Origin: a virus
Taxonomy: Duplodnaviria; Heunggongvirae; Uroviricota; Caudoviricetes
DNA: 10,652 nt
IMG/VR virus record: IMGVR_UViG_2671180884_000028
Span: 1-10,652 of that record
Reading direction: 5' to 3' (one strand)
The notes beneath the pieces were generated by a model that saw only the letters and a list, made by a program, of their open reading frames with translations, had not been told where the DNA came from and did not search any database. Made by a program: the position numbers and the translations under genes. Shown here in pieces: positions 1 to 10,652 of this stretch (the first letter of the stretch is position 1; each line of letters opens with the position of its first letter).

Positions 1-1242
1 ATGGCGAGAAAAACACCCCCATTAACCACAGTACAGATCAAAGCAGCCAGACCAGCAGAAAAGGAATACACCCTACAGGACGGCGGAGGGCTTTTTCTCC
101 TGATCAAACCGTCTGGATCAAAACTCTGGAGATTTTCCTACTACCGACCATCGGACAAAAAAAGAATATTGCTGAGTTTTGGATCGCTTGATGATGTTTC
201 CCTGGCTGATGCCAGAAAACGCCGTAGCGAGTACAGGGCGTTAATTCGTGCCGGAACTGACCCGCAGGACCACGAGAGGCAAAAAAGAGAGGCAGAGGCC
301 CGAAGACAAGGGAACACGTTCGAAAATGTGGCAACAGCATGGTACCAGGTGAAAATCAGCCAGAATCTGGCCCCCAATACGATTAAAGACATCTGGCGAT
401 CGCTGGAAAAATATGTATTCCCGTTCATCGGCAACACGCCAATAGACACCCTGACCGCTCGCAGGTTTGTTGAGGTGCTTACCCCCATCAAGGAACGTGG
501 CAACCTGGAAACGCTCAAGCGAGTTTTACAGCGTGTAAATGAGGTAATGGATTACGCCGCCAATAGTGGGATGATTGATGCCAATCCGGCTATGAATGTG
601 CGTAAGGCGTTCCCCTCCCCTGTAAAAAAACATATGCCAACAATCCGCCCCGAACAGCTGCCGGAGCTTATGCAGGCTTTATCAGTATCGGCAACAGAAC
701 GGCAGACCAGATTACTGATTGAATGGCAGTTACTGACCGTAACCCGTCCCGTTGAAGCATCGTCGGCACGCTGGGAAGAAATCGACATGGAGGCGCAACG
801 CTGGACCATACCCGCCGGACGCATGAAGATGCGCCGCGACCACGTTATCCCGCTTTGTGACCAGGCTATGGCAGTGCTGGAGGCTATGAAACCAATCAGC
901 CACCACCGCGATTATGTTTTCCCGAGTCTGAAAGACCCACGGCAGCCGATGAACAGCCAGACAGCAAACGCAGCATTACGACGCATGGGGTTCGCTGGCG
1001 TGCTGGTGTCTCATGGATTACGCGCCATATTCAGCACAGCAGCGAACGAGGAAGGATTCGAGCCGGACGTAATCGAGGCGGCACTTGCCCACGTCGACAC
1101 CAACGAAGTCAGACGGGCATACAACCGGAGCAACTACATAGAAAAACGCGTGGTGCTTATGCGCTGGTGGGGCGAATTTGTCGAGGCTGCGGCGACGGGC
1201 GTAACCCTCGCCAGTGGTAAAAGGGGTATCCGAGCCGTTTAG
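1..1242 (+). CDS. int: Tyrosine recombinase / integrase, P4-type (N-terminal arm-binding domain plus C-terminal catalytic domain)
   Basis: 413-aa ORF from ATG at 1 to TAG at 1240-1242. N-terminus (LTTVQIKAARPAEKEYTLQDGGGLFLLIKPSGSKLWRFSYY) is typical of the DUF4102 arm-binding domain of P4-like integrases. C-terminal region (HVIPL..., HGLRAIFSTAANEEGF..., RAYNRSNYIEKR) fits the tyrosine recombinase catalytic R..HxxR..Y pattern. Confidence 0.9.
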   Translation: MARKTPPLTTVQIKAARPAEKEYTLQDGGGLFLLIKPSGSKLWRFSYYRPSDKKRILLSFGSLDDVSLADARKRRSEYRALIRAGTDPQDHERQKREAEARRQGNTFENVATAWYQVKISQNLAPNTIKDIWRSLEKYVFPFIGNTPIDTLTARRFVEVLTPIKERGNLETLKRVLQRVNEVMDYAANSGMIDANPAMNVRKAFPSPVKKHMPTIRPEQLPELMQALSVSATERQTRLLIEWQLLTVTRPVEASSARWEEIDMEAQRWTIPAGRMKMRRDHVIPLCDQAMAVLEAMKPISHHRDYVFPSLKDPRQPMNSQTANAALRRMGFAGVLVSHGLRAIFSTAANEEGFEPDVIEAALAHVDTNEVRRAYNRSNYIEKRVVLMRWWGEFVEAAATGVTLASGKRGIRAV

Positions 1243-1340
1243 CTGTACAGAAAACCAGTAAAAACTACGAAAACCATTTAAAACCGTCGTATAATTGCAT
1301 CACATTTAACGACGAGGCCTTGAAAAATGAAACCGTTAAG

Positions 1341-1571
1341 ATGCAAACAAATTTCAGATGCAATTGCGACGGGCTGCAACTGGCCCTGATGGTTCAGCAT
1401 GAATTTTGGTCAACCTACGATCCGGAGGACAGAACGACGGCCCCATCAAAAAAACAGGTAGTAGATTTCCTGGTATCCCGTGGAGCTTCCAGAAATCTGG
1501 CTGTAAGTATTGATAAGGTTGTACGTCCGGCATCCATGAAGACCGGAGGCAGGCCAAAAAAATGGCGGTAA
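1341..1571 (+). CDS. Hypothetical small protein (76 aa from first ATG; ORF is open from TTG at 1320)
   Basis: Open frame ending TAA 1569-1571, preceded by a TATAAT hexamer at 1290-1295 and followed directly by a strong intrinsic terminator. No convincing Shine-Dalgarno; AGA/AGG codons present. An alternative 20-aa ORF from ATG 1327 has a better RBS (GAGG at 1313-1316). Could instead be a non-coding RNA. Confidence 0.3.
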   Translation: MQTNFRCNCDGLQLALMVQHEFWSTYDPEDRTTAPSKKQVVDFLVSRGASRNLAVSIDKVVRPASMKTGGRPKKWR

Positions 1572-1581
1572 CAATCCTGAA

Positions 1582-1605
1582 AGCGGCAGAAATGCCGCTT
1601 TTTTT
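1582..1605 (+). terminator. Rho-independent terminator
   Basis: Hairpin AGCGGCA-gaaa-TGCCGCT (7-bp stem, GAAA tetraloop) followed by a T-run of 7. Confidence 0.7.
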
Positions 1606-1632
1606 ATAAATCCCTTTCAAATCATCAATATA

Positions 1633-1720
1633 AAAAACGGTGTATACCGTTTAAAAACGGTGAGTACTGTTTTTCCCTGCATCCGATGATTTACCGTATT
1701 TCTCACCGGAATACACCGGA
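1633..1720 (+). promoter_or_regulatory. alpA upstream control region with repeated motifs
   Basis: Direct repeats AAAAACGGTG at 1633-1642 and 1653-1662 (20 bp apart), the first inside the inverted repeat AACGGT-gtat-ACCGTT (1636-1651). Direct repeats CACCGGA at 1704-1710 and 1714-1720 (10 bp apart), just upstream of the alpA RBS. Confidence 0.3.
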
Positions 1721-1738
1721 TTAATGAGGTAAATCACG

Positions 1739-1945
1739 ATGGAAGCAATCAAAAAAGTCATCTTTCGCCAGGAAGTAAAAAAACTTATCCATATTAAGGC
1801 AGACAGCACGCTGCAAAGCATGATCAACGCCGGAGAATTCCCGCAGGGTTTTCGTGTCGGTTTGCGCCGTCGCGGATGGTATGAGGAAGACGTAATCGCA
1901 TGGATGAAAGAACGCGAACAAGAAGCGCGCGGAACGACCGCTTAA
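1739..1945 (+). CDS. alpA: AlpA-family transcriptional regulator (prophage CP4-57 regulatory protein-like, HTH)
   Basis: 68 aa; ATG 1739, TAA 1943-1945; RBS TGAGG at 1725-1729. Sequence (FRQEVKKLIHIKADSTLQSMINAGEFPQGFRVGLRRRGWYEEDVIAWM) fits the AlpA/MerR-like HTH pattern (Φ..EV..L...STL...I..G.FP....VG.R..GW.E.DV..WM). Confidence 0.8.
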   Translation: MEAIKKVIFRQEVKKLIHIKADSTLQSMINAGEFPQGFRVGLRRRGWYEEDVIAWMKEREQEARGTTA

Positions 1946-2066
1946 CATATATAGGGCAAATGATGAACATAAAAAAAGCGGCCCCGAAATGGAGCCACCT
2001 TTCTGAACAATTAACCCGCTGCGCCGTATGTGTCAACAATCATAAGCCTGGGCATGATAACCGCGA

Positions 2067-2270
2067 TCAGGCTGGTGGGCAATTATCTTGCTTGTTGGGG
2101 CCGTATTGTGCTGCCATTTTCATCCGTTCAGAACGTGAATATTTTTTTAGAAACTCATCAAGGACAAAAGCGCATGGTGCGAATCTTTCTGATTCATGCT
2201 CGAGCGCCATATTTTCGTGCTCTCTGTTCGTTTTTTGCGATGGTGTATTGGTTGATTCTTTGTTGGTCAT
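2067..2270 (-). CDS. Hypothetical protein (67 aa), possible second gene downstream of the RHH repressor
   Basis: ATG at 2270 (minus strand), 57 bp downstream of the RHH gene stop on the same strand. Hydrophilic, no recognisable domain, weak RBS. Coding status uncertain. Confidence 0.2.
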   Translation of the reverse strand: MTNKESTNTPSQKTNREHENMALEHESERFAPCAFVLDEFLKKYSRSERMKMAAQYGPNKQDNCPPA

Positions 2271-2327
2271 TGTGTGTACCTGTAAAGCAATGCGCCGGAG
2301 TTCCTCACGCCACGGCGCTGATGGTTT

Positions 2328-2519
2328 TTATCCTTTGGGTTCTATGCCGCGCCGCTTTAGTTCAGTGCGCCCCAACTCTTTAAGCCAGTTGGCCAGGCTT
2401 ATGCCGTCGCTCTGTGCTTCTTTATCGAATTGCTCTTTTAGCTCTGGAGAAATTCGCATTCTGAATTGTGGGGATTGCCCGTCCCCTTTAGGGCTTTTAT
2501 CGCGTTTGATTGTTGACAA
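2328..2519 (-). CDS. Arc-like ribbon-helix-helix (RHH) DNA-binding protein, candidate island repressor
   Basis: The C-terminal 50 aa (SPQFRMRISPELKEQFDKEAQSDGISLANWLKELGRTEL) match the P22 Arc N-terminal beta-strand/helix pattern (MPQFNLRWPREVLDLVRKVAEENGRS...). Start is ambiguous: the ORF is open from TTG 2600; TTG 2519 is preceded by AGGTGA; ATG 2459 would remove the beta-strand. Stop TAA is the reverse complement of 2328-2330. Confidence 0.6.
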   Translation of the reverse strand: MSTIKRDKSPKGDGQSPQFRMRISPELKEQFDKEAQSDGISLANWLKELGRTELKRRGIEPKG

Positions 2520-2561
2520 GTGGTCACCTATTGAATTAGCCTTTCTATTGTTAGGTGACCA
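2513..2561. promoter_or_regulatory. Candidate operator/promoter: perfect 10-bp inverted repeat beside a consensus -35 hexamer
   Basis: TTGACA at 2513-2518; TGGTCACCTA at 2521-2530 and its exact reverse complement TAGGTGACCA at 2552-2561 (21-bp spacer). Lies between the RHH gene and the rightward early operon. No good -10 at canonical spacing, so the promoter call is tentative. Confidence 0.4.
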
Positions 2562-2653
2562 CCTTAACACAAGAGCACTTAAAAAAGCAAAGCCCCGCAA
2601 GTGTCATTACCACTCGCAGGGCTTCTAACCAACAACGTAAACTAGGAGCCGTT

Positions 2654-2848
2654 ATGGTTGCTGTAAATCATATACCACACCTTGTACACACACAAACTGC
2701 CTTTGTGTGGCGTTTTCTGGCACTGAGTGCCGGAGAATCTCAAATCATCCACGTAACCGCCTGGACGGAACGCGAAGCGCGTAACCGTTGCCCGTCCGGT
2801 TGTGTTGCTGTATTTGCCGCCCGTATTCGTCAGGAGGTAGGCTTATGA
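2654..2848 (+). CDS. Icd/Ash-like small protein (host cell-division-inhibitor-like family of P4-type elements)
   Basis: 64 aa from ATG 2654 with RBS AGGAG at 2644-2648. Motifs FVWRFLAL...TEREARNR...FAARI resemble the Icd-like family as recalled. The ORF track's longer version starts at GTG 2555 and would overlap the RHH gene. Confidence 0.5.
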   Translation: MVAVNHIPHLVHTQTAFVWRFLALSAGESQIIHVTAWTEREARNRCPSGCVAVFAARIRQEVGL

Positions 2849-3078
2849 GCCAGGAAATCACACTACAACAGGCAGCAGAACGCGCCCACCAAATCGAAGT
2901 TATTTGCGCACTGGCAGAGGATTACCCTGGCATGATGACCGACAGCGAATCAGGGGCAATCATCGGCTTACTTAAACGCCTTAGCGGTGAGGTCTGCGTA
3001 TTCCTGAGCGATGAACAGGAAAGAAGAACGCTTATTTCTAACGAAAAAAAATGCGGAGGGGTACACCATGTGCAATAA
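2845..3078 (+). CDS. Hypothetical protein (77 aa)
   Basis: ATG 2845 overlaps the upstream stop (ATGA at 2845-2848); RBS AGGAGG at 2832-2837. Confidence 0.55.
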   Translation: MSQEITLQQAAERAHQIEVICALAEDYPGMMTDSESGAIIGLLKRLSGEVCVFLSDEQERRTLISNEKKCGGVHHVQ

Positions 3079-3289
3079 CATCCGTCCGGACGCAGCAGCC
3101 GCCGCGCTCACTACGCTGATGCACGCGCTTATCGATATTGAATGCACTGCAGAGCTTGCGCAGGGAGAAGAACAGAAAGACCGGACACAGTTCGCCCTGG
3201 AATGTATCCGATACATCGCAACGCGGTCGCTGAATGACGCTAAAAATATTCTTGTTGCTGATTGTGAAAATGGGGGGGGTTATGCGTGA
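3068..3289 (+). CDS. Hypothetical protein (73 aa)
   Basis: ATG 3068 preceded by GGAGGGG (3055-3061). Overlaps the end of the upstream ORF by 11 nt. An in-frame ATG at 3011 lacks an RBS. Confidence 0.5.
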   Translation: MCNNIRPDAAAAALTTLMHALIDIECTAELAQGEEQKDRTQFALECIRYIATRSLNDAKNILVADCENGGGYA

Positions 3290-3515
3290 TGATCGTTTTA
3301 ATTCCCTGAAACAGGAATTTTCCGGCGTTCCTGATGATGCGGCTGATGCGCTTTCGTCAATGCCAGAACTTATTAGAGCGGCTTTTTTCTTACTTTCCAC
3401 GAGAGAATATAAATCAACGGGGCTTGATGTACTGAATATCGCCGCCGATTATGCGGAATATGTGGCAGAGGCGCGTTACAGAAGAAAATTTCCTGAGGAT
3501 GTAAGCCATGCGTGA
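3282..3515 (+). CDS. Hypothetical protein (77 aa)
   Basis: ATG 3282 preceded by a G-rich RBS (GGGGGGGG at 3272-3279). Overlaps the upstream stop at 3287-3289. Alternative ATG at 3234 has no RBS. Confidence 0.5.
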   Translation: MRDDRFNSLKQEFSGVPDDAADALSSMPELIRAAFFLLSTREYKSTGLDVLNIAADYAEYVAEARYRRKFPEDVSHA

Positions 3516-3741
3516 TATTTACCTCGAAACAATAGACCGCGCATTTCTTGCACTTTCTCACAGTGAAAGCATGATGGAAATATTACGCATATGGCTTGAA
3601 ACACTTGGCGACAATGAACGCGACAAACAAAAATCAAGAATTGCCACGGTATTAATAACGCTTCTTGAGCCTGTAATAATGGAACTGCAAGAAATAGACT
3701 TATTGCACGACAGATATAACGAACAGCACACCGGAGAATAA
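3508..3741 (+). CDS. Hypothetical protein (77 aa)
   Basis: ATG 3508 with GAGGA at 3495-3499; 8-nt overlap with the upstream ORF; stop TAA 3739-3741. Confidence 0.55.
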   Translation: MRDIYLETIDRAFLALSHSESMMEILRIWLETLGDNERDKQKSRIATVLITLLEPVIMELQEIDLLHDRYNEQHTGE

Positions 3742-3746
3742 AAATA

Positions 3747-4046
3747 ATGAAACTTAAATATTCTGGCTTAACTGCCAGTGGCAACACTCACCCTAAATTT
3801 ACGCGCGGTGATATTTACCGCGACCAGTACGGCGGCACGGTAATGATTAAGGGCGTGGCGGGACGGTGCGTAACTTACCGCCGTGAAGGTTACGAATATG
3901 ATTGCGTGATGCCTGTTTATCAGTTCCGGCGTGATTTTTCTCTGGTACAGACCGCGCCGCATAACGTGCCCACCAGCAACGCCAGAGCACGGGCAAACAT
4001 CCAGAAGCTGAAAACCATGATTAACGGATTCAGGGGTAAAAAATGA
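3747..4046 (+). CDS. Hypothetical protein (99 aa)
   Basis: ATG 3747 with GGAGAA at 3733-3738. Its stop overlaps the primase start (ATGA at 4043-4046), indicating translational coupling. Confidence 0.55.
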   Translation: MKLKYSGLTASGNTHPKFTRGDIYRDQYGGTVMIKGVAGRCVTYRREGYEYDCVMPVYQFRRDFSLVQTAPHNVPTSNARARANIQKLKTMINGFRGKK

Positions 4047-5797
4047 AACTGGCACCGAACGTAAAACAGCAGTCACGCGGCATAAAACACAAAGAAACAG
4101 AAGTCATTATTTTTGCGGGTAGTGATGCCTGGTCACACGCGAAACAATGGCAGGAACATGACGCGCGTATGGCCGGAGATAATGAGCCTCCTGTGTGGCT
4201 TGGGGAGCAGCAGTTATCAGAACTGGATAAGCTGCAAATTGTGCCGGAAGGCAGAAAATCCGTGCGCATATTCAGGGCCGGACATCTTGCACCAGTAATG
4301 ATCAAGGCGATTGGTCAAAAGCTGGCGGCGGCTGGTGTACAGGATGCAAATTTTTATCCTGAGGGTATGCACGGCAAGGAGGTGCAGAACTGGCGCGAAT
4401 ACCTGGCCCGTGAACGCCAGAATCTTTCTGATGGTCTGGTCATTGAGCTTCCGGTAAAGCAAAAGGCGCAACTTTCGCAGATGGCGGACAGTGAGCGCGC
4501 GCAGTTGCTTGTCGATCGCTTTGATGGCGTTTGCGTACATCCTGAAAGTGAAATCGTTCACGTATGGCGTGGCGGGGTATGGTGTCCGGTCAGCACAATG
4601 GAACTGAGCCGCGAAATGGTGGCGATCTATTCAGAGCACAGGGCCACTTTCAGCAAGCGCGTAATCAATAACGCCGTGGAAGCATTAAAAGTTATTGCCG
4701 AACCAATGGGCGAGCCGTCCGGCGATTTGTTGCCGTTCGCCAATGGTGCGCTTGACCTGAAAACAGGGGAATTTTCCCCGCACACGCCGGAGAACTGGAT
4801 CACCACGCACAACGGCATTGAATACACGCCACCAGCACCAGGGGAGAATATCCGCGACAACGCGCCAAACTTTCATAAATGGCTTGAGCACGCAGCCGGA
4901 AAAGACCCGCGCAAGATGATGCGTATATGTGCCGCGCTGTACATGATTATGGCGAACCGGTACGACTGGCAGATGTTTATTGAGGCCACCGGAGACGGCG
5001 GGAGCGGTAAAAGTACATTCACACACATAGCCAGCCTTCTGGCAGGGAAACAGAACACGGTAAGCGCTGAGATGACATCGCTTGATGATGCTGGTGGACG
5101 TGCGCAGGTTGTCGGGAGTCGTCTTATCGTCCTGGCAGACCAGCCGAAATATACAGGCGAAGGAACGGGCATCAAGAAAATCACGGGCGGCGACCCCGTG
5201 GAAATTAACCCGAAATATGAAAAGCGTTTCACGGCGGTAATCAGGGCGGTGGTGCTGGCGACCAATAACAATCCGATGATATTCACCGAACGGGCCGGAG
5301 GTGTGGCACGTCGTCGCGTGATTTTCCGTTTCGACAATATTGTTAGTGAGGCCGAAAAAGACAGGGAGCTACCGGAAAAAATTGCGGCTGAAATCCCCGT
5401 CATTATCCGCCGCTTGCTGGCGAACTTTACCGACCCTGAAAAGGCACGGGCTTTACTCATTGAGCAGCGTGACGGTGATGAAGCTCTGGCAATAAAGCAA
5501 CAGACGGATCCGGTTATTGAGTTTTGCCAGTTCCTGAATTTTCTGGAGGAAGCGCGCGGCCTGATGATGGGGGGCGGTGGCGATTCAGTGAAGTACACGA
5601 CCAGGAACAGCCTTTACCGCGTCTATCTGGCGTTTATGGCATACGCAGGCAGGAGCAAACCGCTAAACGTGGCTGAGTTCAGCAAGGCCATGAAGCCAGC
5701 GGCGAAAGTTTACGGGCATGAATATATTACGCGAAAAGTTAAGGGAGTAACGCAGACCAACGCAATTACAACAGACGATTGCGACGCGTTTTTATAA
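4043..5797 (+). CDS. Replication initiator: primase / SF3 helicase (P4 alpha-like / D5-family Pri-Rep protein)
   Basis: 584 aa. Walker A motif ATGDGGSGKST and Walker B-like RLIVLADQP in the C-terminal half. Size and layout match satellite primase-helicases. An iteron-rich origin lies immediately downstream. Confidence 0.85.
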   Translation: MKLAPNVKQQSRGIKHKETEVIIFAGSDAWSHAKQWQEHDARMAGDNEPPVWLGEQQLSELDKLQIVPEGRKSVRIFRAGHLAPVMIKAIGQKLAAAGVQDANFYPEGMHGKEVQNWREYLARERQNLSDGLVIELPVKQKAQLSQMADSERAQLLVDRFDGVCVHPESEIVHVWRGGVWCPVSTMELSREMVAIYSEHRATFSKRVINNAVEALKVIAEPMGEPSGDLLPFANGALDLKTGEFSPHTPENWITTHNGIEYTPPAPGENIRDNAPNFHKWLEHAAGKDPRKMMRICAALYMIMANRYDWQMFIEATGDGGSGKSTFTHIASLLAGKQNTVSAEMTSLDDAGGRAQVVGSRLIVLADQPKYTGEGTGIKKITGGDPVEINPKYEKRFTAVIRAVVLATNNNPMIFTERAGGVARRRVIFRFDNIVSEAEKDRELPEKIAAEIPVIIRRLLANFTDPEKARALLIEQRDGDEALAIKQQTDPVIEFCQFLNFLEEARGLMMGGGGDSVKYTTRNSLYRVYLAFMAYAGRSKPLNVAEFSKAMKPAAKVYGHEYITRKVKGVTQTNAITTDDCDAFL

Positions 5798-5810
5798 TTT
5801 TTTGTAAAAG

Positions 5811-6040
5811 CCCTCTACCCCATCTACCTGAATGAAATAAATACATATTATTCAACATGATAAGTGGGTAGAGGGCCAGGTAGAAGGCTAATAAAAGCTC
5901 TCTACCTCTTCTACCTGATTTTATCAGTTTCAGGTAGCAGGGTAGACGGTAGGTAGAGGAGCCCAAAAAGCTATCTACCCGCTGAAAGCCGCGCCATTAC
6001 TGACATGATGAGCATTCGGGTAGATGGGTAGAGGGGGGGA
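5811..6040. repeat. Iteron array / candidate origin of replication
   Basis: About 12 copies of a core TCTACC / GGTAGA motif arranged in clustered pairs in both orientations. Examples: CCCTCTACCCCATCTACCTGA (5811-5831), GGGTAGAGGGCCAGGTAGAAGG (5865-5886), CTCTCTACCTCTTCTACCTGA (5899-5919), AGGTAGCAGGGTAGACGGTAGGTAGAGGA (5932-5960), GGGTAGATGGGTAGAGGGG (6018-6036). An AT-rich stretch sits at 5831-5862. Confidence 0.6.
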
Positions 6041-6080
6041 GGCACAACTAAAAACTTTTTAAACGAGGGGGTGAAAATAA

Positions 6081-6395
6081 ATGCGCATACATCAAAATCA
6101 CTTAACAAACATGCCAGCCGAAAACATGAATCAGGGGCGACAAATGACCAAAATTCGCAGAGACAGAACAGAGCCAAAATATAAAGCGTTAGACATGACT
6201 GAGCATACCTTAAAGGTGGCAATCAGAACGATAGACCGCCACGCGGGGGAAGGATACGCGAAAGCACATCCCGACATGATAAGCGCATTCATGACCACGA
6301 CGGCGGCAAATTTTGCCACGCTGACAGAGCGGGAGATTGCGGAAGCTGAACAGGTGACAACCATCAACGTTAAAAACGTAGAGGTGGAATCATGA
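6081..6395 (+). CDS. Hypothetical protein (104 aa)
   Basis: ATG 6081 with RBS GAGGGGG (6065-6071). Stop overlaps the ssb start (ATGA at 6392-6395). Confidence 0.55.
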   Translation: MRIHQNHLTNMPAENMNQGRQMTKIRRDRTEPKYKALDMTEHTLKVAIRTIDRHAGEGYAKAHPDMISAFMTTTAANFATLTEREIAEAEQVTTINVKNVEVES

Positions 6396-6809
6396 CAGCA
6401 CAGATAGCGGCTTACGGGCGGCTGGTGGCTGGTGGCTGACCCACAGTTAAAGACCACCAGCAAGGGCACACAAATGACGATGGCGAGTATGGCGGTTCCC
6501 CTGACATGCAGCCAGGCTGATGACGGAACGGCGACGATGTGGTTATCCGTCCTGGCGTTTGGCAGACAGGCCGACGCACTGGCAAAACACCGCAAAGGCG
6601 AGCTGGTGAGCGTGGCGGGTAACATGCAGGTAAGCCAGTGGACAGGCCAGAACGGCGAAACGCGGCAGGGCTGGCAGGTTATCGCAGACAGTGTAATCAG
6701 TGCCCGTGCTGCCCGTCCTGGCGGGAGCAGACGTACAACCACAGGCACACAGGGTAATCAGCCACCAGCGGGAGGCGATGACCCTTACGGTGACGGTATT
6801 CCGTTCTGA
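6392..6809 (+). pseudogene. ssb: Single-stranded DNA-binding protein (SSB-like), disrupted by a frameshift
   Basis: ATG 6392 opens MTAQIAAYGRLVAGG and then hits TGA at 6437-6439. The rest of the protein continues in the +1 frame (ADPQLKTTSKGTQMTMASMAVPL...GWQVIADSVISA...DDPYGDGIPF) with the SSB acidic DIPF tail. A tandem 7-bp duplication GCTGGTG/GCTGGTG at 6421-6434 accounts for the shift; removing one copy restores ...GRLVADPQLK... in frame. Confidence 0.65.
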
Positions 6810-6819
6810 GGGGGTGACG

Positions 6820-7092
6820 ATGGTACATGACCGCATAGCGGAGGAACTCGAGGCAAAAGGCTTTTACCGGAGGGCGGCGGCGCGATGGGGTGAAGTTATG
6901 CAGCTGGTGGAGACAGACAAGGAACGGCATCAGGTTACGATGCGACGGCTGGAATGTTCCAGGAAGGCACAGAAGCCACCGGAGCCGCCGGATAACTTCG
7001 GAGACCTGAGAAAGGCAGTCGATCGCACTTATGCTGAAATGGGTATAGATGGTGTAAGCGATGAAATATGGCGTAATTACCCAGACAGCTAA
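6820..7092 (+). CDS. PerC-family transcriptional regulator-like protein (90 aa)
   Basis: ATG 6820 with RBS GAGGGGG (6808-6814). N-terminus MVHDRIAEELEAKGFYRRAAARWGEVMQL matches the conserved PerC/Pch N-terminal pattern as recalled. Confidence 0.55.
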   Translation: MVHDRIAEELEAKGFYRRAAARWGEVMQLVETDKERHQVTMRRLECSRKAQKPPEPPDNFGDLRKAVDRTYAEMGIDGVSDEIWRNYPDS

Positions 7093-7097
7093 TCAAC

Positions 7098-7120
7098 AGC
7101 CGGAGAAATCCGGCTTTTTT
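7098..7120 (+). terminator. Rho-independent terminator
   Basis: Hairpin AGCCGGA-gaaa-TCCGGCT followed by TTTTTT, directly after the PerC-like gene. An almost identical copy occurs at 9372-9395. Confidence 0.6.
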
Positions 7121-7131
7121 GTACCCAAAAA

Positions 7132-7169
7132 AAGCCCGATAAGTACAGGAGGCATCTTATCGGGCTTTT
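7132..7169. terminator. Second hairpin, possible bidirectional terminator
   Basis: AAGCCCGATAAG-(12-nt loop)-CTTATCGGGCTT with TTTT on the plus side and an A7 run (T7 on minus) on the other side. Confidence 0.4.
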
Positions 7170-7246
7170 GCATATGAGGTTTTTTTGGTGCACTGACACA
7201 CATGATCGGGATAATCATTTCATAATTTGCAACACAACTCAACATC

Positions 7247-7297
7247 ATTGCACAAAATGCAATCCTGATTATAATCAGAGCTGGATGTTCATCCAGT
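7247..7297 (+). promoter_or_regulatory. Promoter of the head module with three palindromic elements (candidate operator or activator sites)
   Basis: -35 TTGCAC (7248-7253), 16-bp spacer, consensus -10 TATAAT (7270-7275). The -10 lies inside the perfect 14-bp palindrome CTGATTATAATCAG (7265-7278). Flanked by ATTGCA-caaaa-TGCAAT (7247-7263) and CTGGATG-tt-CATCCAG (7281-7296). Confidence 0.5.
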
Positions 7298-7331
7298 TAT
7301 GATTTTTTAAGTCAAAGAGGAATTTCTTACT

Positions 7332-7538
7332 ATGGCTGAAGAGAAAAAAGGCGGTGTTTCGGTGTACATAAGCCCCGACATCGTGAAGGCGCTCAAGGAA
7401 CGCCACCAGCAGAACGTAAAAGCAGGCATTGCGGCAGGACTTGATCCGCTGGCGATGGTTGAGCCGTCAACAGGCTGGCAGGTGCGCGCCTACTTACGTG
7501 CGGCGCTGGGTATGAATCAGGTTCACGGGGGTGAATAA
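7332..7538 (+). CDS. Hypothetical head-module protein (68 aa), translationally coupled to the major capsid gene
   Basis: ATG 7332 with RBS AAGAGGAA (7315-7322). Stop overlaps the capsid gene start (TAATG at 7536-7540). Position suggests a scaffold or assembly factor, but there is no sequence evidence for this. Confidence 0.5.
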   Translation: MAEEKKGGVSVYISPDIVKALKERHQQNVKAGIAAGLDPLAMVEPSTGWQVRAYLRAALGMNQVHGGE

Positions 7539-8593
7539 TGGCAGGCAAAGCAATGGCACTTAACACTAACCAGCTTTTTACATACCTGAATCGCGGGGAT
7601 ATTGCGGAATTTAAATTCAGTCCGCTGTTTACCACGCTGTTTTTCCCGAACGTGGCGACATTCAGCACCCAAAACATCATGCTGGATACCCTGGACATTG
7701 AAGAAGTCACCATGTCGGCGTTTTGTTCGCCTATGGTTGGCAGTCAGGTACAGCGCGATAAAGGGTATGAAACCAGCACAATCAAACCTGGCTACATGAA
7801 GCCAAAGCACGAAATCGATCCAACAAAAACCATCATGCGCATGGCTGGAGAAGATCCGGCACAGCTTAACGACCCTACCTACCGCCGTATGCGCCTGATT
7901 ACTGGCAACATGCGCCGCCAGATAAACGCCATTAAAGCGCGCGTGGAATGGCTGGCGGTGAATGCGATAACGACCGGAAAAAACATCATTGAGGGCGAAG
8001 GCATAGAACGCTATGAAATCGACTGGAAAATACCGGAAAACTGCATCATAGAGCAGGCCAAGGGTAAAAAATGGTCCGAGCATGATAAAGATATTTACGA
8101 TCCAATCTATGACATCGAACTATACGCAGATCAGGCAGGTTGCCCCGCCAACGTCATGATTATGGGCGCTGAGGTATGGCGCACGTTACGCAGCTTTAAA
8201 AAATTCCGCGAACTGTACGATCTTTCCCGTGGTTCAGAATCCGCCGCAGAACTGGCCTGTAAAAACCTGGGTGAAGTAGTGAGCTTTAAAGGCTATCTGG
8301 GCGATATTGCCCTTATCGTCTATTCCGGCAAATACACTGACAGCGACGGTACCGAAAAATATTTCCTTGAGCCTGATTTGCTGGTCCTGGGTAACACCAA
8401 CAATAAAGGGCTGGTGGCCTATGGTGCGATTATGGATCAGGAAGCGGTAAGAACGGGCGCAACGCAAAACATGTTCTACCCGAAAAACTGGATTGAAGAC
8501 GGCGATCCGGCGATTGAGTACGTTCAGACGCACAGCGCACCGCAGCCGGTACCGGCAGATATTCGCAAATTTGTTACCGTCAAAATTGGTTAA
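7538..8593 (+). CDS. Major capsid protein, lambda gpE family (HK97 fold)
   Basis: 351 aa. Collinear with lambda gpE as recalled: EFKFSPLFTTLFF vs KFKFDPLFLRLFF; PGYMKPKHEIDP vs PGYVKPKHEVNP; GEDPAQLNDPTYRRMRLITGNMR vs DEDPQNLADPAYRRRRIIMQNMR; VSFKGYLGDIALIVYSGKY vs VSYKGMYGDVAIVVYSGQY; FYPKNWIEDGDPA vs RYPKNWVTTGDPA; C-terminus KFVTVKIG vs EFVSVQLA. Confidence 0.9.
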   Translation: MAGKAMALNTNQLFTYLNRGDIAEFKFSPLFTTLFFPNVATFSTQNIMLDTLDIEEVTMSAFCSPMVGSQVQRDKGYETSTIKPGYMKPKHEIDPTKTIMRMAGEDPAQLNDPTYRRMRLITGNMRRQINAIKARVEWLAVNAITTGKNIIEGEGIERYEIDWKIPENCIIEQAKGKKWSEHDKDIYDPIYDIELYADQAGCPANVMIMGAEVWRTLRSFKKFRELYDLSRGSESAAELACKNLGEVVSFKGYLGDIALIVYSGKYTDSDGTEKYFLEPDLLVLGNTNNKGLVAYGAIMDQEAVRTGATQNMFYPKNWIEDGDPAIEYVQTHSAPQPVPADIRKFVTVKIG

Positions 8594-8604
8594 CGGGGGA
8601 TTCT

Positions 8605-8940
8605 ATGGACACTCCATACATTGAGTTATTTGCAGGCAGTCAGCAGGTATCCACGACGCTGGTACATTTTGCCGCTGATGCTGGCGTCATTCAGGAATTT
8701 ACCCCGCTGATGCTGGCGGACAATGGCGAGTTTAAGCCGTGGGATGGTCAGGAATCTGGCAAGGCTGTTTATCTGACCTCGTACCCTGTGGACACGTCAA
8801 AGCAAAAATCAGCACAGTGTTACAAGACGGGGATATTTAATATCGCCGCCGTAAACTGGCCTGAGAGCGTCGACACTGACGCGAAAAAATGCGCCGCCTT
8901 TGCGGGTTCTGGCGTATCCGTTCAGCCGCTGGCGCGATAA
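8605..8940 (+). CDS. Head decoration / stabilisation protein, lambda gpD-like
   Basis: 111 aa; ATG 8605 with RBS GGGGGA. Matches lambda gpD as recalled: TPLMLADNGEFKPWDG vs TPLMLDTSSRKLVAWDG; CYKTGIFNIAAVNWPE vs FYKSGTFRYEDVLWPE; DAKKCAAFAGSGVS vs DETKKRTAFAGTAIS. Confidence 0.8.
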   Translation: MDTPYIELFAGSQQVSTTLVHFAADAGVIQEFTPLMLADNGEFKPWDGQESGKAVYLTSYPVDTSKQKSAQCYKTGIFNIAAVNWPESVDTDAKKCAAFAGSGVSVQPLAR

Positions 8941-8952
8941 GCAGGGGGAACG

Positions 8953-9366
8953 ATGGCAACGAATGAAAGCATCATGACGCTACCGCTGGCGAGTAAATTT
9001 AAAGCCGAAGCGCGGGCAATGGCTGACAGAGGTTTATCAACCTACGAGGCCGTATATCAACTCAACAAACTGGAAGAGCAGGACAAGCCGCGCGCTGATG
9101 CGATTATGGCGCTTCATGAACATAACGACTATCAGCCGCTGTTACGTGCAATGGCAAACGTGCCATGTATTAGCGTCGATAATGCTCGTGAAATCCTGAA
9201 CATGACCATAGAGCAGGAGCGCCCAAAGGTTGCGCCGGAGCTTACCGCAGCCTTTGAAAACTTTATGGACATGCACAGCCCGAAAGCCGTATCACCCGGC
9301 ATGGCATACGATGGCAGAAACCAGGGCGATGACGGCGACATCGATCGCATACTGAAAACCATCTGA
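8953..9366 (+). CDS. Hypothetical protein (137 aa) at the end of the head module
   Basis: ATG 8953 with RBS AGGGGGAA (8943-8950). Followed by a terminator hairpin. No recognisable homology. Confidence 0.55.
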   Translation: MATNESIMTLPLASKFKAEARAMADRGLSTYEAVYQLNKLEEQDKPRADAIMALHEHNDYQPLLRAMANVPCISVDNAREILNMTIEQERPKVAPELTAAFENFMDMHSPKAVSPGMAYDGRNQGDDGDIDRILKTI

Positions 9367-9371
9367 GACAA

Positions 9372-9395
9372 GGCCGGAGAAATCCGGCTTTTTTT
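9372..9395 (+). terminator. Rho-independent terminator (second copy of the hairpin at 7098-7120)
   Basis: GGCCGGA-gaaa-TCCGGC followed by T7. Sits immediately upstream of the cosQ-like sequence. Confidence 0.6.
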
Positions 9396-9572
9396 ACGGG
9401 TCCTTTCCGGCATATGGACCCGTTACGGGGCGGCGACCTCGCGCGTTTTCGCTATTTATGAGCCTTTTCAGGGGGGTGGTGGTGGTTTTGTTGTTTGCTC
9501 TATCTTTATGAATGAAAAGGGAAAGATGCAAACAATACACCAACCTGAAGCAGTAATTAAGTTGGTGTATTA
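9396..9572 (+). other. cos site A (cosQ-like, cosN, divergent cosB), forward orientation, upstream of terS
   Basis: ACGGGTCCTTTCCGG...CCGTTACG followed by the exact lambda cohesive-end 12-mer GGGCGGCGACCT (9428-9439), then CGCGCGTTTTCGCTATTTATGAG, closely matching the lambda genome left end as recalled. The distal part lacks lambda R-site motifs and instead has inverted repeats AATACACCAAC / GTTGGTGTATT (9530-9540 / 9561-9571) and TGTTTGC / GCAAACA (9494-9500 / 9517-9523). Confidence 0.75.
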
Positions 9573-10115
9573 ATGAAATCGCACCTGATGAACAAAAAAA
9601 ACATGGCGAAAAGCTGCCGTGTAAGTGCGACAGCGTTCGACAAGTGGGGAGTGACTCCCGTTGAACGTAAAGGCCGTGAGGCGTTTTATGATGTTGCCAG
9701 CGTGATAGACAATAGGGTTAACAATGCAATTAGCCAGCTTACAAACGACAAAGGCGATATTGATGATGATGAACTCTTACGAGTCAGGATCAGATTACTG
9801 ACAGCACAGGCGGAGGCGCAGGAACTTAAAAACGAGCGCGATCGCGGTGACGTGATTGATACTGAGTTTTGCCTGTACGCGCTTTCAAAGCTGGCGAGTC
9901 AGATTTCATCAATCATGGACAGCCTCCCGCTTACTATGCAAAGGAGCTTCCCACAGATTACCCCCGCCATGCTGGACAGGCTTAAAAGGGAAGTGGTTAA
10001 AGCCTGTAATGCCAGTGCCAGAGTTGCCGACAACCTCCCACAGATACTGGCTGATTACTTGAAAGAAACAACCGGAAACGTACCGGAAAAGTTGCTACAG
10101 AAGAAAGGCAAGTAA
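9573..10115 (+). CDS. Terminase small subunit, lambda Nu1-like (TerS)
   Basis: 180 aa. Middle and C-terminal regions are collinear with lambda Nu1 as recalled: LTAQAEAQELKNERDRGDVIDTEFCLYALSKLASQISSIMDSLPLTMQRSFPQ vs LTRAQADAQELKNARDSAEVVETAFCTFVLSRIAGEIASILDGLPLSVQRRFPE. The N-terminal wHTH region is much more divergent. Alternative start ATG 9588 (MNKKNMAK) aligns with Nu1 MEVNKKQLA. No strong RBS at either start. Confidence 0.85.
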   Translation: MKSHLMNKKNMAKSCRVSATAFDKWGVTPVERKGREAFYDVASVIDNRVNNAISQLTNDKGDIDDDELLRVRIRLLTAQAEAQELKNERDRGDVIDTEFCLYALSKLASQISSIMDSLPLTMQRSFPQITPAMLDRLKREVVKACNASARVADNLPQILADYLKETTGNVPEKLLQKKGK

Positions 10116-10340
10116 CAGAAGCGCAATTATTGAACAAAAATGAGAAACGACATGAAAGCGTCATAAATCGCCATTTCAGATGATTACCGTGTCGTTTCTT
10201 TTTATTGTGTATCTATTTAAAAACAAATAGTTATGTTCGAGAAGTACCGACATGATTTTTCCAGAAAAATTTTCATAAACAGATAAAAACCGCGAGGTCG
10301 CCGCCCCGTAACGGGCCATAATTCCAGGAAGGACCCGACG
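10116..10340 (-). other. cos site B (lambda-like cosQ-cosN-cosB) in inverted orientation, downstream of terS
   Basis: On the minus strand: CGGGTCCTTCCTGGAATTATGGCCCGTTACG, then GGGCGGCGACCT (plus 10295-10306), then CGCGGTTTTTATCTGTTTATGAAAATTTTTCTGG, then R-site-like AAGAAACGACACGG and ATGTCGTTTCTCA (perfect 10-bp inverted repeat at plus 10152-10161 / 10190-10199). This is collinear with lambda cosN-I2-R3-R2 as recalled. A 25-bp core is a perfect inverted repeat of cos A (9419-9443 vs 10291-10315). Confidence 0.7.
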
Positions 10341-10370
10341 ACACCAGACTATCAGAACGATGGGGGCACA

Positions 10371-10652
10371 ATGACAGAAGCCGAACTACTGCGATTAATC
10401 CGTCGCGTTGCCGGAATCAGCCAGCAGGCTGACGAACAGGCCACGCAGCCGGACAGCGTGACAGCCGAAAATTATGTGCGTGTTGTTGCGGAGGTGATGC
10501 GCCGTGATGGTATCCAGCTTAATGATGCGGATATGCGCGACATACGGATCCGCGTTCTTGAAATGCTGGCCTACCGTCGCCGCGTGCAGACGTACAGGGA
10601 AAAAGCAAAAATAACGTACCAGTGGAAGAAGCCGGAGCGATTACGGCGGTAA
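10371..10652 (+). CDS. Hypothetical protein (93 aa) just beyond cos B
   Basis: ATG 10371 with G-rich RBS (GGGGG at 10362-10366); stop TAA 10650-10652 at the window end. No recognisable homology. Confidence 0.45.
   Translation: MTEAELLRLIRRVAGISQQADEQATQPDSVTAENYVRVVAEVMRRDGIQLNDADMRDIRIRVLEMLAYRRRVQTYREKAKITYQWKKPERLRR

Follow-up and report, generated by a model that had tools for sequence, protein, structure and literature searches.

The second cos site of a terS-encoding EcCICFT073-family island resembles a helper-phage cos

Why would a phage satellite carry two packaging sites that point towards each other? The locus that raises this question lies near the right-hand end of a 10,652-nucleotide stretch of viral DNA (positions 1 to 10,652 of IMG/VR record IMGVR_UViG_2671180884_000028, Caudoviricetes; hereafter the window, by which we mean the whole stretch). 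The window is a complete phage-inducible chromosomal island (PICI) of the EcCICFT073 family, of the terS-encoding subtype found in Escherichia coli strains IHE3034, Nissle 1917 and ATCC 25922. In it, two lambda-type cos sites face each other, ∼870 bp apart, across terS, a gene for a small terminase of the Nu1 family. A double cos site is already known for this family, and the window adds a further member to the known terS-encoding subtype. We are concerned here chiefly with the second site, the one downstream of terS, which by its sequence is very probably a cos of phage type.

The convergent cos pair and its published counterpart

The window contains exactly two instances of the lambda cohesive-end 12-mer GGGCGGCGACCT (cosN), one on the plus strand at 9428-9439 (copy A) and one on the minus strand at 10295-10306 (copy B); 200 dinucleotide-preserving shuffles gave no match. 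The two copies lie in an inverted repeat (9397-9468 / 10266-10337; 72 nt, 79% complementary) that contains a perfect 25-nt core, CCCGTTACGGGGCGGCGACCTCGCG, at 9419-9443 and 10291-10315. Thus the exact 12-mer in two inverted copies and the perfect 25-bp core, both described in an earlier note on this DNA, are confirmed. Alignment with the end junction of lambda (J02459) shows both copies to be collinear with it through cosQ (GGGTCCTT(T/C)C(C/T)GG), cosN and I2. Copy A has a cosQ-like segment at 9394-9409 (plus strand; TACGGGTCCTTTCCGG) that is identical to lambda cosQ over GGGTCCTTTCCGG, the 12-mer within the perfect core, and a segment that aligns to lambda I2 at 9453-9468 (TATTTATGAGCCTTTT). 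In copy B, read on the minus strand, a segment aligning to lambda and phage cosQ (GTCGGGTCCTTCCTGG) lies at 10324-10339, and the exact cosN 12-mer is followed by an I2 (TTTATGAAAATTTTT; 10265-10279) identical to that of lambda.

An inverted duplication of this kind could be a product of assembly, as the earlier note had cautioned, or a chance similarity. Chance is hard to reconcile with two occurrences of the 12-mer against none in the shuffles. As for assembly, the cassette alone is present at at least 80% coverage in 487 complete E. coli genomes, and the right-end 3 kb, at the same coverage, in 492, including the independently sequenced Nissle 1917 and ATCC 25922. In complete E. coli genomes the related islands are located between cspD and clpS or between roxA and phoQ, and the chromosomal gene, clpS or phoQ, directly follows the 93-aa gene downstream of copy B, so the island ends there. 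Both cos copies are therefore inside the island and an assembly artefact is excluded; we regard artefact and chance alike as refuted, with virtually no probability left to either.

The same note knew of no described dual, oppositely oriented cos architecture in satellites, yet one had been published. EcCICFT073 'carries two cosN sequences', cos1 and cos2, and each cloned site permits plasmid transfer by lambda and phi80 (Fillol-Salom 2018 ISME J, PMC6092414). A heterocomplex of the island protein RppA with TerS recognises the cosB of cos1 only, as demonstrated by cosB swaps (Fillol-Salom 2019 Mol Cell, PMC6739421). The words 'orientation' and 'inverted' are absent from both texts. At the roxA-phoQ site of CFT073 a 435-nt gene lies between two convergent cos copies, and its translation (MIDKACFVSQQEIAEHFKVNRTTIRAW...) is RppA (c1503, 144 aa, with the published R21-T22 of the Rpp recognition helix). 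The cos1 and cos2 of Figure S1A (PMC6739421) correspond to the upstream CFT073 copy and to the copy that follows rppA, read as its reverse complement, and thus the published pair has the same convergent layout. A literature search on cos2, or on two cos sites in satellites, found no follow-up beyond the 2018 and 2019 papers; a paper on helper-embedded PICIs mentions cos in passing only.

The cassettes of the two islands also agree in family, gene order and att-site class, in sharing cosQ, cosN and I2 between the convergent copies, and in having one small packaging gene followed by the 93-aa gene. In both, the downstream cosB is different from the upstream one; the latter is recognised by the protein of the island itself in EcCICFT073, and probably also in the window. 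They differ in the middle gene, which here encodes a full-length Nu1 homolog (180 aa) and not an Rpp protein (RppA, RppB or RppC; 144-153 aa). Both window cosB regions are unlike those of CFT073 in sequence and, while the authors reported no phage cosB at either of their sites, the downstream copy of the window is plainly phage-type. We have very little doubt that the feature is the published cos1–gene–cos2 cassette.

Two cosB regions of different kinds

Beyond cosN the two copies part company, as the earlier note had held: over the cosB region, copy A is at background against phage cosB (49-55% identity), whereas copy B is phage-type (74-75%). Copy B aligns over I2, the R3 position, I1, R2 and R1 with lambda, with phage PhiR5_1 and with the lambdoid prophage of CFT073, whose cos is the 'phage 4' cos of the 2018 Fig. 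S5 (PMC6092414). All its elements are on the minus strand. The R3-position element (ATCATGTCGGTACTTCTCG; 10238-10256) is near-identical to ATCGTGTCGGTACTTCTCG of the CFT073 prophage, and the I1-position segment (CATAACTATTTGTTTTTAAAT...; 10202-10237) is collinear with the I1 region of lambda and the other phages. R2 (AAAGAAACGACAC in cos orientation; 10189-10201) is identical to PhiR5_1 R2 over AAAGAAACGACA. R1 (TTCATGTCGTTTCTC in cos orientation; 10142-10156) aligns with R1 of PhiR5_1, the CFT073 prophage and lambda, and makes an inverted pair with R2. The earlier note had recognised lambda-like R-type elements and an I2 here, and the inverted pair GAAACGACA / TGTCGTTTC and TTTATGAAAATTTT are indeed present; the alignment to lambda and lambdoid cos that it had proposed as a check bears it out, all five elements being collinear.

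From cosN to the position of the Nu1 start, a span of ∼178 nt, the identity of copy B is 74-75% to both the CFT073 prophage and PhiR5_1, and 67% to lambda. Over the same span the phages are 68-73% identical to each other, and shuffles reach a mean of 55% and a maximum of 61-62%. The likeness runs as far as the position of the phage Nu1 ATG, where it meets the 3' end of the opposed island terS. Copy B therefore keeps the whole non-coding part of a lambda cos and, in contrast to lambda, has no nu1 gene behind it in the packaging direction. A lambdoid phage has one cos, whereas here there are two, opposed and ∼870 bp apart, in an island that differs from lambda also in having no large terminase, portal or tail genes.

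The cosB of copy A (9481-9572, plus strand) contains three R-like elements, at 9481-9498, 9528-9545 and 9561-9571. These keep the positions and orientations of lambda R3, R2 and R1 and differ from them in sequence, being built on the inverted repeats AATACACCAAC / GTTGGTGTATT and on GGTGGTTTTGTTGTTTGC, the non-lambda repeats reported in the earlier note. The lambda order cosQ-cosN-I2-R3-I1-R2-R1, followed by the small terminase gene, is thus preserved in copy A and terS, with private R elements. Sequence searches found no phage match to this cosB, which is also unlike the cosB of CFT073 cos1; on these comparisons it is private to the island.

The protein encoded between the sites, which we call TerS-180, is a small terminase of the Nu1 family. 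Its gene (9573-10115, plus strand) encodes 180 residues, with a true start possibly at M6 (9588), and scores 83 bits against a cutoff of 30 with Pfam Phage_Nu1 (PF07471). The identity of TerS-180 to lambda Nu1 is 35% over residues 6-166 (E = 1e-34) and that to N15 gp1 is 46%; the protein falls in phrog_57, terminase small subunit (3e-53). The alignment extends over lambda Nu1 residues 3-180, including the C-terminal end (...LPQILADYLKET against ...IPGLLSEYIEQS). In lambda Nu1 the C-terminal region is the part that binds gpA, the large terminase, and gpA binding is predicted there for TerS-180. It is a genuine Nu1 homolog. The islands of IHE3034 and 18098 have been stated to 'encode TerS' (PMC6092414). 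We also considered TerS-180 as a variant of Rpp and rejected this: BLASTP found no similarity to RppA (E = 1.3), the protein has 180 residues rather than 144-153, and it aligns end to end with Nu1. A PDB sequence search with the 180-aa protein recovered neither RppC nor the Nu1 N-terminal domain.

To place the window among its relatives, 80 IMG/VR loci were gathered with the 137-aa protein encoded upstream of copy A as anchor, and the middle protein and both cosB segments were clustered for each locus. A convergent pair is present in 55 of these loci, a tandem or divergent pair in none, and all TerS and RppA genes were forward-oriented. TerS-180 occurs with upstream cosB type T and a phage-like downstream type (24 loci). 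RppA occurs with upstream type R and, downstream, either type C (12 loci) or type X (9 loci); a further RppA locus, L081, stands outside the cosB-type groups. Cassettes with no middle gene carry types C and X in either arrangement (5 and 4 loci). Type T is strictly linked to the TerS-180 N-terminus (∼38 loci), and all TerS-180 variants share one N-terminal DNA-binding region. Across these clusters, then, the upstream cosB goes with the island protein, whereas the downstream cosB varies without regard to it.

The downstream types connect the family to phages. Type C, the cosB of EcCICFT073 cos2, matches the cos of phages PhiR12_1, _2, _4 and _5 at 98% identity (compared segments: L006 3095-3297 for CFT073 cos2, L088 1100-1375 for PhiR12_1). 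The identity spans ∼110-135 nt from cosN and is followed by divergence; in PhiR12 this cos lies between Rz and Nu1. The published account (PMC6739421), which called both PICI cosB regions 'completely divergent' from phage cosB on the basis of lambda, phi80 and phage 4 only, is contradicted by this match.

Within TerS islands the downstream site is a mixture of the most and the least conserved sequence of the cassette. Among 22 distinct cassettes the copy B core (10291-10337) varies at 2 of 47 columns, while the copy B cosB varies more than any other part, at 42-78% of columns compared with 34% at third-codon positions of terS. The variants are discrete alleles. That of the window and Nissle has R2 AGAAACGACA and R1 TGTCGTTTCT. 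In the L052-type allele all three R elements are changed concordantly (GTCAGATCC / GGATCTGAC / TCAGATCC), and it is weakly like the nu1 region of phage SerU-LTIIb. The L011-type allele is 78% identical to the classical phage 21 cos and 84% to that of phage IdasGreatGrand. The alleles fall into lambda/PhiR5-like and 21-like types, in line with the specificity groups of lambda and phage 21; over all the loci, PhiR12-like is a third downstream type that matches a phage specificity group. Decay alone was considered as the source of this variability and rejected, since the variants are discrete and their R elements intact and concordant. A concordant change of three putative binding sites looks like a working switch of specificity.

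Other loci record further rearrangements of the cassette. Type X cosB (CAATACAACAACC ... GGTTGTTGTATTG) forms the cos2 of many RppA islands (for example L005 3591-3883, the JE86 cos2) and is present also in L017 and L019. Its layout is that of the private cosB of window copy A, with GGTGGTGGT replaced by GGTTGTTGT and ACACCAAC by ACAACAAC. No phage match was found for it, and just 35 complete E. coli genomes contain it, in every case within intergenic DNA that lacks annotation. A set of islands (L044, L046, L047, L078, L079, L080 and L083; ∼3905-4305) has one forward cos with a variant cosN (CACGGGGCGGGAGCGGCGCAGAA) and a PhiR12-type cosB, and in these L044-type islands a truncated, PhiR12-like Nu1 N-terminal remnant is fused just before the 93-aa gene. 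They are apparent cases of capture and decay of a phage cos-nu1 module. In L087, a 4.6-kb metagenome contig, a homolog of the island 137-aa protein comes before a PhiR12-type cos, behind which lie a complete Nu1 of PhiR12 type and the beginning of gpA; the contig represents either a PICI-phage recombinant with its junction at cos or an assembly chimera formed across the cos repeat that the two share.

The gene-less cassettes of L017 and L019 differ in the orientation of the segment between the cos sites, which is 98% identical in reverse. The flanks are direct and the breakpoints lie in the cos arms, so that, judged by alignment, the difference is a natural inversion across the inverted cos repeat. 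Such a clean inversion raises the possibility that the inverted arms are an invertible switch, in which the terS segment would be flipped, by recombination or by terminase cleavage and rejoining of the identical overhangs, so as to change the pairing of cosB with flank or to turn terS expression off. We consider this very unlikely: the inversion is found only in gene-less cassettes, every TerS or RppA gene in the 80 loci is forward, and in a cassette so symmetric a flip would change little.

Possible roles of the second site

In lambda, cosN-cosB is where packaging begins, and it proceeds in the direction away from cosQ. For termination a cosQ upstream of cosN and I2 are required and the R sites are not, as is known from the Feiss-laboratory literature. 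Copy A shares cosQ, cosN and I2 with lambdoid helpers, and a helper's large terminase could thus be able to cut and terminate there, while the private R elements would be matched to the divergent winged-helix N-terminus of the island TerS. Island TerS together with helper TerL (gpA) would then start at copy A and package rightwards. Unmodified helper terminase (Nu1 with gpA), if of matching cosB specificity, could start at copy B and package leftwards. Such dual packaging had been suggested in the earlier note. Since termination of the lambda type depends on cosQ lying upstream of cosN, neither of the convergent runs should be able to stop at the opposing site; each would end at the next copy of its own. 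Either run would yield whole-island multimers. EcCICFT073 is packaged as phage-sized DNA, which for the 10.65-kb element would take about four units; helper-induced excision, replication and packaging have been published for the CFT073 island only.

Parts of this scheme have parallels. The established strategy of the Staphylococcus aureus pathogenicity islands (SaPIs) is for their own TerS to join helper TerL in packaging the satellite's DNA, and the two-site situation of EcCICFT073 was said to 'mirror' that of SaPIbov4, described as having two putative cos sites (PMC6092414). The SaPIs, including the cos-type SaPIbov5, differ in being Gram-positive and unrelated in sequence, and the SaPI TerS is pac-type, not Nu1/cos-type.

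On the scheme above, copy B would act as an exchangeable 'helper key', opening a second packaging route independent of TerS or Rpp and competing with the helper genome for terminase. Our preferred reading, although an evenly poised one, is that copy A serves the island as a private site of entry and that copy B offers a second, specific to the helper. We extend it to the family more tentatively, and would sooner expect this wider form to fail than to hold. In it, the second cos would be a swappable helper key, a phage cos minus nu1 whose cosB has repeatedly been exchanged with lambdoid phages and tracks their packaging-specificity groups (lambda/PhiR5-, 21-, PhiR12- and SerU-like), and which may let helpers that TerS or Rpp cannot exploit package the island, or may titrate their terminase.

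Several observations weigh against a helper key. In EcCICFT073, deletion of cos1 lowers island transfer and deletion of both cos sites abolishes it, yet deletion of cos2 raises lambda-mediated transfer, only cos1 being required (PMC6092414). With the laboratory helpers tested the second site is thus a cost, not a benefit. Such a cost might be expected of the geometry: if both sites were cut on one unit, each run would end after ∼870 bp, and simultaneous use should be harmful. This could explain the rise in transfer on deletion of cos2, and suggests that the sites would be alternatives for different helpers. Natural TerS islands also do without the second site. Copy B is cleanly missing from 6 of 32 informative TerS islands, where the terS stop is 14 nt from the next gene, and in L009 (∼4655-4700) it has decayed, the terS stop being fused to CCGCCGCCCCGTAACGGG..., with cosB and part of cosN deleted and cosQ kept. 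Copy B is therefore dispensable, which, taken with the result in the sister island, argues against a need for it in transfer. The terS-type island of IHE3034, the one tested relative, showed very low transfer (PMC6092414). The 2018 primer for its RS04635-RS04640::cat construct matches window positions 10119-10165, within the copy B cosB, so that the IHE3034 transfer marker was inserted inside that cosB, which may bear on the low value. No phage with the exact copy B allele of the window was found (the exact pattern has 0 matches, and the best phage matches are at ∼75%), and all 14 IMG/VR matches to a one-position-degenerate pattern of its R1 flank are on island-sized contigs. Finally, the convergent orientation may simply be inherited, and the 55 pairs are not independent events.

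The same facts fit a second explanation, that copy B is an evolutionary by-product: an inverted phage cos, captured as a fragment, neutral or slightly harmful, and kept or swapped by recombination rather than selection, the cos region being a hot spot of recombination between PICIs and lambdoid phages because cosQ, cosN and I2 are shared. The higher transfer without cos2, the six clean absences and the decayed copy are all as it would predict. The L044-type islands, with their forward phage-type cos and truncated Nu1, are direct evidence that a cos-nu1 module can be captured and decay; L087 joins an island gene to the cos, Nu1 and gpA of PhiR12, and the segment between the sites is inverted between L017 and L019. 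Less easily accommodated is the retention of the second site, which is present in ∼72% of informative TerS islands (23 of 32) and in all sampled RppA islands. Nor would a by-product be expected to have a cosN-cosQ core that is the most conserved part of the cassette, or cosB alleles that are intact sets of three concordant R elements and not degraded, and the cloned cos2 of EcCICFT073 is functional (PMC6092414). We think this explanation unlikely, although it deserves more weight than any of the other alternatives.

A further alternative is that copy B mainly interferes with the helper, either by soaking up its terminase or by starting abortive runs to a cut copy A ∼870 bp off, and so lowers helper yield. 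A decoy for helper terminase was among the suggestions of the earlier note. The copy B cosB is of helper type, the convergent geometry would be expected to shorten runs from copy B once copy A is cut, and the rise in transfer on deletion of cos2 fits a role other than transfer. PICIs of the EcCICFT073 family do interfere with helper packaging, and they do so via Rpp (PMC6739421). Deletion of rppA alone restores lambda plaque formation almost fully in EcCICFT073, so that Rpp, not cos2, explains the interference in that island. A decoy would, moreover, work in either orientation and would waste island DNA. We consider interference as the main role improbable, more so than a by-product.

The island and what the second site means for its family

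The remainder of the window conforms to EcCICFT073, with the gene order int, alpA-like, pri, SSB, PerC, gpE-like, gpD-like, p137, cos, gene, cos, p93, and measures 10.65 kb from int to the last gene, against ∼10-12 kb for PICIs of this type. The integrase is at the left end and every assigned gene is on the plus strand, that is, reads rightwards; an open reading frame list and a Pfam scan of the window found no genes for a tail, a portal or a large terminase. After cspD or roxA, the island opens with the gene of the tyrosine integrase (1-1242; Pfam Phage_integrase, Phage_int_M and Arm-DNA-bind_3). A 68-aa open reading frame at 1739-1945 is a weak candidate for an AlpA-like helix-turn-helix regulator (Pfam Phage_AlpA, 17.8 bits, under the cutoff of 21); RefSeq places a helix-turn-helix regulator here in sister islands. 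These are followed by a D5-type primase or replication protein, pri-rep (4043-5797; Pfam D5_N, DUF5906 and Pox_D5), a single-stranded DNA-binding protein (6432-6809; Pfam SSB, E = 8e-14) and a PerC-family regulator (6700-7092; Pfam PerC, E = 1.8e-44).

The late module matches the CFT073 order of c1499 (capsid), c1500 (decoration), c1501, cos1, packaging gene, cos2 and 93-aa gene. It comprises a lambda gpE-like major capsid protein in the position of c1499, its homolog (7538-8593; Pfam Phage_cap_E, E = 4e-50), a lambda gpD-like head decoration protein homologous to c1500 (8605-8940; Pfam HDPD, E = 5e-18), the conserved 137-aa protein in the c1501 position (8953-9366; phrog_1999) and, beyond the cassette, the conserved 93-aa protein of the last island gene (10371-10652; phrog_1561). 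The 137-aa protein has a weak likeness to the C-terminus of head maturation protease (phrog_53, 1.9e-9).

The gap between the stop of the 137-aa gene and the cosQ of copy A is filled by a hairpin (GGCCGGAGAAATCCGGC) with a run of seven T residues (9369-9395, plus strand). Its predicted RNA fold has −15.3 kcal/mol (z = −4.9; 0 of 200 shuffles as stable), and the islands of CFT073, JE86 and Nissle all retain it. The structure resembles an intrinsic terminator placed shortly before cos and terS, and as such raises the question of how terS is expressed. A scan of 8900-10652 for consensus promoters and terminators was uninformative, and failed to pick up this hairpin.

Two points appear to be new to the literature that we searched: that the second cos is a genuine helper-phage cos, both in this island and in EcCICFT073, and that the cosB of the second site occurs as exchangeable alleles following lambdoid specificity groups. 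What the second site is for was left open in the papers that described cos1 and cos2. The phage-type alleles make that question experimentally addressable, and suggest why two sites are kept. The answer is relevant to the helper range of these islands and to their spread in pathogenic and probiotic E. coli (the probiotic Nissle 1917 has the cassette), as well as to the design of PICI-based delivery vehicles.

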